The notes below the pieces were generated by a model. That model searched no databases. It was not told where the DNA came from and was given only the letters and a program-made list of their open reading frames with translations. The translations under genes were made by a program, and so were the position numbers. 36,900 bases of DNA from Escherichia phage SaltyDalty: the sequence record PP925825.1. One strand, 5' to 3'. Below are positions 19,097 to 20,331 of this stretch, piece after piece; position 1 is the stretch's first letter, and the number at the start of each line of letters is the position of its first letter.

Positions 19097-19210
19097 TTTT
19101 TTGCTAATCCCGTTCAGTTGCTATCAAAATAATGATAGCAATTGCTATTGGAATGAGCAATAGACTTGTTTATCATGCTTGACTAGAATGTGATAGCGGA
19201 GGCTATAAAT
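19097..19210. promoter_or_regulatory. Right operator/promoter region with divergent promoters and repeated half-sites
   Basis: Palindromes TTGCTATC-N8-GATAGCAA (19118-19141) and TTGCTATTG-N6-CAATAG (19142-19163); further TTGCTAAT (19101) and GATAGC (19192) half-sites; -10-like TAGAAT and TATAAA near the cI start. Confidence 0.6.
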
Positions 19211-19918
19211 ATGCAAGAGAGAACACTTAAGACGCTAGCTGACAGACTTAACTACGCAATGCATGAGATGGGCATGAGCCAGGGTCAGTTAGCCAAAGCG
19301 GCGAATATGGCACAACCAACCATATGGCGAATAACATCTGGAAATGCTAGAGGCACAACTAAAATCGTTGAAATAGCTAATGCCCTGGGTGTTCGTTCGG
19401 AGTGGCTATCAAACGGTACTGGACCAATGAGGGGTGACGACCAACAACCACCCCCACCGATGAATAACAAAAAAGATCCAGCCATCTTCAGAGTTGACGT
19501 ACTCGACCTTACCGTAAGTGCTGGCCCGGGCATAATTAACAGCGAATTCGTGGAGGTGCTGCGCTCCGTGGAATACTCAGTTGAAGATGCCCGTCAAATG
19601 TTTAATGGCCGGAAACAGGAGCAGATACGCATCATCAACGTTCGAGGCGATAGCATGTCTGGCACCATAGAGCCAGGGGACTTACTCTTCGTCGATATCA
19701 GCGTTCAGCATTTCGACGGCGACGGTATATACGCGTTCATCTACGATGACACATCGCATGTTAAGCGCTTACAAAAGATGAAAGACAAACTCTTAGTTAT
19801 CTCTGACAACCATACCTATCTACCATGGGAACCAATCGAGAAGGAAGAGATGAACAAAATTTTCATCTTCGGAAAGGTGATCGGCAGCATGCCGCAGACC
19901 TACAGGAAGCATGGGTGA
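19211..19918 (+). CDS. cI: CI-like repressor (N-terminal HTH, C-terminal S24 LexA-like autopeptidase domain)
   Basis: HTH MSQGQLAKAANMAQPTIWRI; C-terminal VRGDSMSGT with downstream Lys typical of S24 self-cleaving repressors; ATG at 19211 with GGAGG 7 nt upstream. Confidence 0.85.
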   Translation: MQERTLKTLADRLNYAMHEMGMSQGQLAKAANMAQPTIWRITSGNARGTTKIVEIANALGVRSEWLSNGTGPMRGDDQQPPPPMNNKKDPAIFRVDVLDLTVSAGPGIINSEFVEVLRSVEYSVEDARQMFNGRKQEQIRIINVRGDSMSGTIEPGDLLFVDISVQHFDGDGIYAFIYDDTSHVKRLQKMKDKLLVISDNHTYLPWEPIEKEEMNKIFIFGKVIGSMPQTYRKHG

Positions 19919-19971
19919 ATAATGCAAATGAAAATAAAAACTTACGCATAACAAGCTGAGTAGATTCTTAA

Positions 19972-19996
19972 CCCGGCCAGTGCGCCGGGTTTTCTA
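19972..19996 (+). terminator. Intrinsic terminator after the repressor gene
   Basis: Stem CCCGGC/GCCGGG (19972-19977, 19984-19989) followed by TTTTCT. Confidence 0.55.
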
Positions 19997-20239
19997 TGTG
20001 CCCCCACAATAGTAACCACCAGTCAACCAGGCGGGCAACTACCTGATCGGAACTCCTACCCTCTTTCTCTCTGCGAGTATCTCGCCCTTTCACAGTCCAT
20101 TTTATTCTCAAGCTTCGATGCTCCAACTCCCGATATCTCATGTATTGGTAGATCACTGTCTAAAGGACAATTATTTCTACCGTGCTGTTACAAACACATC
20201 AGCAATAGATTTTTTCATTTTTGATATCAATGACATAAA

Positions 20240-20331
20240 AATCAATAGCAATTTAAATAGCAATACCTATTGCAAAGACCAATAGCAGGCTCTATCATCA
20301 TTCTATCAAATCAACTCAGAGGTGATAGAAA
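20240..20331 (+). promoter_or_regulatory. Left operator/promoter region for the plus-strand early operon
   Basis: Repeats of (C)AATAGCA(A) at 20243, 20256, 20280 and inverted at 20267; -35 TTGCAA (20270-20275), 17-bp spacer, -10 TATCAT (20293-20298); GAGGTGA RBS before ATG 20332. Confidence 0.5.

Follow-up and report, generated by a model that had tools for sequence, protein, structure and literature searches.

What does the CI-like repressor of Escherichia phage SaltyDalty recognize, and through which arrangement of sites would it hold this phage in lysogeny? Sequence record PP925825.1, analyzed here as a window of 36,900 nucleotides (the whole stretch of DNA under study), carries a cI-like gene and a cro-like gene that diverge from 114 bp of intergenic DNA, and short repeated sequences are found both between these genes and downstream of cI. 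An earlier inspection of this DNA (hereafter the sequence-only reading) had likened the layout to the right and left operators (OR and OL) of phage lambda. That likeness holds, because divergent genes for a CI-like and a Cro-family protein are flanked by two clusters of a shared motif that lie over candidate promoters. We conclude, with a probability of roughly 80%, that the locus is an ordinary lambda-style lysis-lysogeny (immunity) switch of an HK97-like temperate phage, whose predicted CI operators are 14-bp sites of the form ATAGC-N4-GCTAT. The DNA of the immunity region is 98% identical to that of Escherichia phage Fraca (Hendrixvirinae).

Two clusters of a shared motif flank cI

The window holds five exact matches to ATAG-N6-CTAT against 0.19 expected, which is an enrichment of about 25-fold over shuffled sequence, and none of 100 shuffles reached five. 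Four of these matches fall inside the two regulatory regions (19135-48, 19193-206, 20257-70, and 20282-95). The simpler string ATAGCAA occurs nine times against 4.6 expected, with five of the nine located in the same two short regions. Furthermore, the regions share a 42-nt direct repeat (19135-76 and 20257-98, 74% identical) that runs in the same orientation and aligns the two in register. Both regulatory regions are real and far from chance. The strongest regularity, ATAG-N6-CTAT, had gone unmentioned in the sequence-only reading, as had the 42-nt repeat.

The fifth exact match, ATAGAGTTGTCTAT at 12156-12169, is not part of the immunity region. It falls at the 3′ end of a short minus-strand open reading frame (ORF) and is probably a chance occurrence.

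The repressor belongs to a widespread family

The N-terminal domain of CI (residues 9-70) is closest to the 434 repressor (phmmer against PDB entries 2r63 and 1per, E 6e-6), and the C-terminal half aligns in PDB with UmuD′. The residues needed for autocleavage are present (Ala104-Gly105, Ser148 in GDSM, and Lys185 in VKRL), and self-cleavage itself is predicted. In complete E. coli genomes, matches to cI are confined to the C-terminal S24 half (76-84% DNA identity), and neither the N-terminal DNA-binding half nor the operators find a match there. The repressor is therefore a mosaic. The nearest solved structure to the cro-like product is that of Xfaso1 Cro from a Xylella prophage (3bd1, E 2e-7). 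Its helix KQPSVSRW and the CI helix AQPTIWRI have QP[ST][IV]xR in common, and on the strength of this shared element CI and Cro probably read the same sites.

To follow the sites through evolution, relatives of the CI N-terminal domain were collected among viral contigs and genomes (one genome per species), yielding 85 non-redundant loci (442 kb) with the recognition helix AQPTIWR(I/L)TSG, among them Salmonella BTP1-type, Klebsiella, and Enterobacter elements. Two groups can be distinguished, one close (85-100% identity, same Cro type) and the other more distant (BTP1-type, 62-78% identity). The motif accompanies the repressor module in 85 of 85 loci, across lambda-like, P22-like, and HK97-like backbones, although the relatives are linked by descent and such counts overstate their independence.

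The positions of the motif are as regular as its presence. Within the 130 nt upstream of cI, the 85 loci hold 169 matches to ATA[GC]-N6-[GC]TAT. These lie at -76 from the cI ATG (the position of OR1, which is at -77 in two loci) and at -26 in the distant group or -18/-19 in the close group. The latter is the position of OR3, which was found at -18 or -19 in 27 of 27 close relatives and whose BTP1-type homologue is ATACGCAAGCGTAT at -26. A middle site at -51 in the distant group produces three OR sites that are exactly 25 bp apart. Another 169 matches lie downstream of cI, nearly all in clusters of two or three with spacings of 25, 26, or 19 bp. These clusters lie 80-2065 nt past the cI stop, wherever the cargo genes end, and are present in nearly every relative whose flank reaches OL. 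Only about ten stray matches occur in the rest of the 442 kb.

One 1652-nt contig in this collection (L099) is labelled as a Parachlamydiaceae metagenome-assembled genome and contains the immunity region of an Enterobacter-type prophage, with these same operators. Its metagenomic bin was probably contaminated.

Sequence conservation singles out the half-sites at both clusters. Among 15 distinct close relatives, only 2 of 30 half-site columns in OR vary, compared with 42 of 72 columns in the rest of the intergenic region (Fisher, 6e-7). Among 19 distinct OL sequences, variation affects 3 of 20 half-site positions, 6 of 8 central positions (four per site), and 84 of 111 remaining positions (Fisher, 4e-7). 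The OL1 site illustrates the pattern, in that its outer 5+5 positions are conserved and its central four are variable among these 19 relatives. The operators of phage 434 are likewise 14 bp long (ACAA-N6-TTGT) with conserved outer bases and a free center. Thus, conserved outer bases around a free center fit the homology of the CI DNA-binding domain to the 434 repressor.

A 14-bp palindrome as the probable binding unit

The sequence-only reading had paired the half-sites differently, as longer palindromes whose arms face outwards. One of these, TTGCTATC-N8-GATAGCAA, is indeed present at 19118-19141. The second also exists, as CTATTG-N7-CAATAG at 19145-19163, and its gap is 7 nt rather than the 6 nt given. 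It is therefore reasonable to ask whether the repressor recognizes TTGCTAT-N10-ATAGCAA (19118-41) and CTATTG-N7-CAATAG (19145-63 and 20267-85) as units. The second palindrome has two exact copies against 0.05 expected, and in the BTP1-type group its arms are conserved and its center is variable. Similarly, the left arm TTGCTAT of the first is conserved beside a hypervariable gap.

However, this significance has a simpler source. The N7 palindrome arises automatically because two 14-mers stand 25 bp apart, with their TG/CA flanks also supplying the TTG of the -35 elements. It is absent from Gilliamella relatives, which retain the 14-mers, and we rejected it as an operator on the grounds that it is the junction of two such sites. 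The 24-bp palindrome was rejected as a binding unit because its gap is not fixed. From the lone CTAT to OR1, 16 close relatives have N10 and 11 have N9, and the distant group has N15 (48 loci) or N14 (9 loci). This palindrome is a lone half-site joined to the left half of OR1. Moreover, its half-site centers, separated by about 15 bp, point away from each other and so fall on opposite sides of the helix, which, judging from the known 434 complex, would be a misfit to one 434-type dimer. Long outward palindromes also leave the perfect sites at 19193-206 and 20282-95 unexplained, and we consider them very improbable as repressor units.

Another arrangement is suggested by OL, where four copies of AATAGCA, one of them inverted, had been described. 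Three direct copies are there (beginning at 20244, 20256, and 20281), but the inverted copy is not. The string taken for it, CTATTGCAA at 20267-75, is not the reverse complement of AATAGCA (which is TGCTATT), and consists instead of the right half CCTAT of a 14-mer followed by the -35 hexamer TTGCAA. Perhaps the repressor reads direct repeats with a period of 12-13 bp, as do P2 C and 186 CI, rather than palindromes. In addition to the three copies themselves, it favors this proposal that the first AATAGCA is invariant at its 12-bp offset from the second in 19 relatives, without a palindromic partner. But the CI N-terminal domain is 434-like, and members of this family recognize sites with two-fold symmetry. 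Both OR1 and OR3 form perfect palindromes, conservation is as strong in the right halves (CTAT) as in the left, OR has no series of direct repeats at 12-bp intervals, and distant relatives retain perfect 14-bp palindromes. We therefore give the direct-repeat arrangement hardly any credence. The binding unit is most likely the 14-bp palindrome ATAGC-N4-GCTAT, in which half-sites pair inwards and not, as first supposed, outwards.

Half-sites change together with the recognition helix

If CI reads the 14-mers, then relatives with other recognition helices should carry other half-sites. More remote relatives from Gilliamella (about 40% identity, helix SQPAIQKLLSG) have three perfect copies of ATAAC-N4-GTTAT at -97, -72, and -48, which are 25 and 24 bp apart. 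Relatives from Gallibacterium have similar 14-mers of the ATA(C/A)C or AAAAC type. A control is provided by phage CharmingMan (L108), whose replication backbone is the same as here as far as the 3′ end of cro and whose repressor is unrelated. Its equivalent OR and OL positions (3460-3540 and 4340-4400 of L108) are occupied by TTACC-N4-GGTAA 14-mers, and ATAG-N6-CTAT is absent from both of its regulatory regions. As judged by sequence comparison, CharmingMan represents a clean swap of the immunity module with a junction inside the 3′ end of cro. Because three half-site sequences track three repressor helices, the motif travels with the repressor module and changes with the recognition helix.

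The operator interpretation thus passes the test that the sequence-only reading had itself proposed, in that the repeats are kept in 85 of 85 same-helix relatives and replaced in CharmingMan, where the repressor is another one. The sequence-only reading had also spoken of a candidate immunity specificity. The half-site is distinct, as it had claimed, but this specificity is not private to SaltyDalty, since helix and half-sites are common to a wide family that includes BTP1.

These findings also bear on the idea that the repeats are not repressor sites, and are promoter elements, sites for host factors, or products of chance. In favor of this idea, the promoter hexamers that the sites overlap would be conserved anyway, and the region is A/T-rich. 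Against it stand the enrichment over shuffles (about 25-fold), the recurrence of the 14-mer architecture with half-sites that track three helices, and the way in which the sites follow the repressor module across three phage backbones. Of all the explanations considered, this one strikes us as the least credible.

Predicted operators and candidate promoters between cro and cI

The features of the switch are collected in Table 1. OR consists of three 14-mers, two with perfect half-sites and one degenerate, with spacings of 25 and 33 bp, and these overlap the candidate promoters for rightward transcription (PR) and for cI. OL consists of two 14-mers, 25 bp apart, and a conserved half-site, where OL2 and OL1 flank and cover the candidate early-left promoter (PL).

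Table 1. Genes, predicted operators, and candidate promoters of the SaltyDalty immunity region (positions in the window; lone half-sites are unpaired)
Feature	Positions	Strand	Description
cro-like gene, 72 aa	18878-19096	-	First gene of the rightward early operon; Pfam YdaS_toxin and P22_Cro
Lone half-site TTGCTAT	19118-19124		About +2 to +8 of PR; conserved; left arm of the 24-bp palindrome
Candidate PR	19132-19160	-	-35 TTGCTC (19160-19155), 17-nt spacer, -10 TATCAT (19137-19132); promoter-like match 8/12
OR1, ATAGCAATTGCTAT	19135-19148		Exact ATAG-N6-CTAT; perfect 14-bp palindrome with A/T center; in PR spacer and -10
Two overlapping candidate cI promoters	19148-19189	+	TTGGAA-17-TATCAT (19148-19176) and TAGACT-17-TAGAAT (19161-19189); both conserved in close relatives
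OR2 (putative), ATAGACTTGTTTAT	19160-19173		Degenerate, 7/10 half-site positions; 25 bp from OR1; abuts PR -35
OR3, ATAGCGGAGGCTAT	19193-19206		Exact match; perfect half-sites, G/C-rich center (GGAG); contains the cI Shine-Dalgarno sequence GGAGG (19198-19202)
cI-like repressor gene, 235 aa	19211-19918	+	ATG at 19211, stop at 19918; Pfam HTH_3 and Peptidase_S24, both above Pfam cut-offs
Intrinsic-terminator-like hairpin, then T-run	19970-19991	+	After cI; conserved in close relatives
Non-coding spacer	19992-20202		Slot of cargo genes in relatives; empty here
Upstream lone half-site CAATAG	20203-20208		Mostly conserved as AATAG in close relatives
OL3-like element	20245-20258		Invariant left half ATAGCA, no matching right half; overlaps OL2 by 2 bp
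OL2, ATAGCAATACCTAT	20257-20270		Exact ATAG-N6-CTAT; just upstream of PL -35, 1-bp overlap
Candidate PL	20270-20298	+	-35 TTGCAA, 17-nt spacer, -10 TATCAT; match 9/12; within the 42-nt repeat common to OR
OL1, ATAGCAGGCTCTAT	20282-20295		Exact match; overlaps PL -10
Further lone half-site CTATC	20303-20307		Conserved
First gene of the early-left operon, 66 aa	20332-20532	+	From the ORF list; phrog_4587, a family of unknown function

The candidate PR is the sole promoter-like match on the minus strand of the cro-cI intergenic region, and its predicted layout is repeated in the BTP1-type group as TTGnnn-17-TATTAT. Transcription of cro would start near 19125. The sequence of OR1 is also present in the OL of Enterobacter prophages. 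The neighboring lone half-site TTGCTAT varies in only one of seven columns among 15 distinct close relatives, and there is no ATAG partner 10 bp upstream of it.

Between this half-site and OR1 lies a hypervariable block of 10 nt (19125-19134), located at the predicted discriminator and -10 of PR. Its length changes (N9/N10) even among relatives with an identical CI N-terminal domain and an identical remainder of OR. This block may tune the strength of PR.

The assignment of OR2 is a putative one based on position and a partial match. The site is invariant in close relatives, and its BTP1-type homologue by position, ATAGC[ATG]AAACGTGT, is found at -51.

The cI maintenance promoter is a separate matter, because the alternatives here concern one step of the mechanism and not the identity of the sites. 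Of the two overlapping candidates, TAGACT-17-TAGAAT has its -35 within OR2 and would start cI near 19196, and TTGGAA-17-TATCAT is a paralogue of PL, with the center of OR1 near -41.5 and OR2 over its -10. A third candidate, TTGACT (19179-84) with TATAAA (19204-09), was rejected as the promoter for repressor maintenance (PRM), given its 19-nt spacer and the lack of conservation of TTGACT among close relatives. If the PL-like promoter were the one that maintains cI, OR1 would be the site of its activation and OR2 that of its shut-off, and the switch would stand one operator out of step with those of lambda and the BTP1-type phages. Several observations point this way. The 42-nt module (operator, -35, and operator with TATCAT) is common to OR and OL in the same orientation, both hexamers are conserved, and the competing promoter has a -35 that is buried in OR2. 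Furthermore, the center of OR1 (19141.5) is about 41.5 bp from the start predicted near 19183, and this distance corresponds to the classical activating position of lambda CI at OR2. On the other hand, every close relative has likewise kept the TAGAAT/TAAAAT -10 of the competitor, even next to bases that change, and OR3 with its perfect half-sites would form a roadblock downstream of the PL-like start. We therefore regard maintenance from the PL-like promoter as possible but doubtful.

OR3 differs between the two groups of relatives in its relation to translation. When 19193-19213 of the window is compared with the segment from -30 to the ATG in BTP1-type loci such as L088, the window's own group has a GGAGG Shine-Dalgarno sequence inside OR3, whereas the BTP1-type loci do not have one (TATAAATTAAAACTTATG). 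This suggests that BTP1-type phages make a near-leaderless cI mRNA. The BTP1-type group also has a TTGACC...TATAAA promoter directly after OR2, which, together with the missing Shine-Dalgarno sequence, fits a lambda-like, near-leaderless PRM.

A more far-reaching scenario would combine these differences. The copy of the 42-nt PL module would point at cI, OR1 rather than OR2 would serve as the activating site, and OR3 would have moved by 8 bp onto a newly acquired Shine-Dalgarno sequence, thereby placing a leadered cI mRNA under roadblock or translational control. BTP1-type relatives would have kept the near-leaderless, lambda-like PRM, and the lone half-sites might be auxiliary contacts for higher-order complexes between OR and OL. 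We consider it unlikely that the switch has been re-registered in this manner.

The predicted left operator and the interval beyond cI

The pair formed by OL2 and OL1 is found 25 bp apart in every close relative. The promoter that the sequence-only reading had placed here, TTGCAA/TATCAT, is present at 20270-20298 on the plus strand with a spacer of 17 nt, and the left operon is predicted to start from it near 20305. The AATAGCA of the OL3-like element, at its fixed offset of 12 bp from OL2, is invariant in 19 distinct relatives. Downstream of 20332, small plus-strand genes follow one another in series, and no recognizable N-like first gene was found in the left operon by PHROG families.

From the cI stop to the left cluster, there are ORFs of only 62 and 55 aa, with no match to a PHROG family, and an Rfam search of 18600-20600 gave no match. 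Neither rexAB-type nor bstA-type cargo was encountered between cI and OL; the interval is made up of the terminator and about 250 nt in which no ORF is credible. This agrees with the sequence-only reading, which had described a terminator and about 250 bp of non-coding DNA in place of rexAB-like genes.

The slot for cargo between cI and OL (19919-20240 in the window, 3270-4193 in the relative L106) varies greatly in length, from 80 nt in some relatives to about 340 nt here and up to about 2 kb (2065 nt). Phage BTP1 carries the abortive-infection gene bstA in this slot (PMC8585504). Some Enterobacter prophages apparently have small genes with lipoprotein-like starts there, according to a by-eye reading of the DNA.

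How the switch might operate

Motif statistics, positions, conservation, covariation of half-site and helix, and protein families were computed, and from these we infer binding, affinity order, cooperativity, and promoter use as follows. A CI dimer would bind ATAGC-N4-GCTAT, such that the 434-type helix-turn-helix of each monomer reads one outer 5-bp half-site. Bound at OR1 (19135-48) in the spacer and -10 of the leftward-reading PR, CI would shut off cro and the replication operon. OR2 (19160-73), 25 bp from OR1, would be a weak site whose occupation is probably cooperative. OR3 (19193-206) lies over the ribosome-binding site and the 5′ leader of cI, and could mediate negative autoregulation at high levels of repressor. 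By analogy with 434, OR3 would be filled last, and would thus throttle cI, because its G/C center should lower its affinity. At the other cluster, CI bound at OL2 and OL1 would stand on both sides of the PL -35 and over its -10, and the early-left operon, which begins at 20332, would in this way be shut off.

Induction would presumably follow the usual course. RecA activated in the SOS response would trigger self-cleavage of CI at Ala104-Gly105 by the Ser148/Lys185 dyad, both promoters would be released, and the prophage would be induced. Cro would afterwards occupy the operators of CI and lower the transcription of cI.

Several observations count against the 14-mer switch as proposed here. 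The conserved lone half-sites (19118-24, 20203-08, 20245-51, and 20303-07) are unexplained by a simple model with one dimer per 14-mer. OR2 is a poor match (7/10), and its conservation could equally reflect the overlapping promoters. More generally, 19149-19192 is mostly conserved in close relatives, and conservation alone does not single out operators in this segment. In its geometry, the cI promoter departs from that of the BTP1-type group: OR3 is displaced by 8 bp, and the cI mRNA would be leadered in the window's group. To these must be added the shared descent of the loci that were counted, and the fact that our literature search found no published binding or transcript data for this phage or for members of the repressor family.

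Significance and a neighboring feature

The locus is a new member of a well-known switch design and as such a textbook-type case of low surprise. Our literature search found no paper that contains the operator strings. The papers on BTP1 that the search covered describe the cI-bstA operon and do not mention operators, and the annotated records of BTP1 and ASU11, which have repressors of this family, list none. What the analysis adds is a concrete and testable definition, ATAGC-N4-GCTAT, with ATA[GC][CG]-N4-[CG][GC]TAT for the wider family. The immunity group is widespread in prophages of Enterobacteriaceae and includes the clinically studied Salmonella phage BTP1. The definition could be used to predict superinfection-immunity groups from sequence, to find OL, and with it the limit of the cargo slot beside cI, in prophages of this family, and to supply orthogonal repressor/operator parts.

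Apart from the switch, a tandem repeat with a period of 23 and 2.6 copies occupies 18255-18314, inside the O-like replication gene (17750-18733, minus strand). The O-like protein also has a duplicated peptide, NQHAGMGKTN(K/E)Q.CG. By analogy with lambda, these repeats are candidate origin iterons inside the gene for the replication initiator.

Comparison with known systems

In its DNA-binding domain and operator size, the switch is 434-like. Among solved structures, that of the 434 repressor comes closest to the CI N-terminal domain. Both systems have 14-bp operators with a variable center and three OR sites between divergent promoters, and in both of them repressor and Cro have recognition-helix residues in common. 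However, the half-site is ATAG(C) here and ACAA in 434, and the helix is QPTIWR here and QQSIEQ in 434. Given these differences in half-site and helix, SaltyDalty does not belong to the 434 immunity group and should be heteroimmune to 434. In addition, its Cro falls in an Xfaso1/YdaS-like branch rather than in the 434 Cro family, and its OR2-OR3 spacing is 33 bp.

In layout, the switch is lambda-like. The two have in common the gene order with divergent cI and cro, a tripartite OR, and a second cluster over the early-left promoter downstream of cI. They also share the S24 autocleavage domain and the placement of one operator in the spacer and -10 of PR and another next to its -35. In contrast, lambda operators are 17 bp long with another sequence, rexAB is absent here, and the distance from OR to OL is about 1.1 kb here compared with about 2.4 kb in lambda. 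The cI Shine-Dalgarno sequence inside OR3 also differs from the situation in lambda, where the PRM transcript is leaderless.

A third comparison is with BTP1 and other phages that have this repressor. By protein search, the first 77 residues of CI are 75.7% identical to those of the Salmonella phages BTP1, ST104, ST160, and SE1, and 78.6% identical to those of the lambda-like coliphages 4A7 and Perceval and of Klebsiella phages. Over its full length, CI is 74% identical to BTP1 CI, and the two helices differ at one position (AQPTIWRLTSG in BTP1, AQPTIWRITSG here). BTP1 CI is the prophage repressor, highly expressed in lysogens and co-transcribed with bstA from a single start site (PMC7067206). 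In BTP1-type viral and genome contigs, OR1 and OR2 lie at the same distances from the cI ATG as here, and ATAGC half-sites are held in common. BTP1 itself is outside the 85-locus scan, and by eye its OL contains ATAACAAAACGTAT and ATACTCAATGCTAT. Unlike the SaltyDalty locus, those of the BTP1-type group have ATACG/CGTAT half-sites in addition to ATAGC, a spacing of 25 bp rather than 33 bp for OR3, a cI start without a Shine-Dalgarno sequence, a different Cro (42% identity between the BTP1 protein and the one encoded here), and often cargo between cI and OL.

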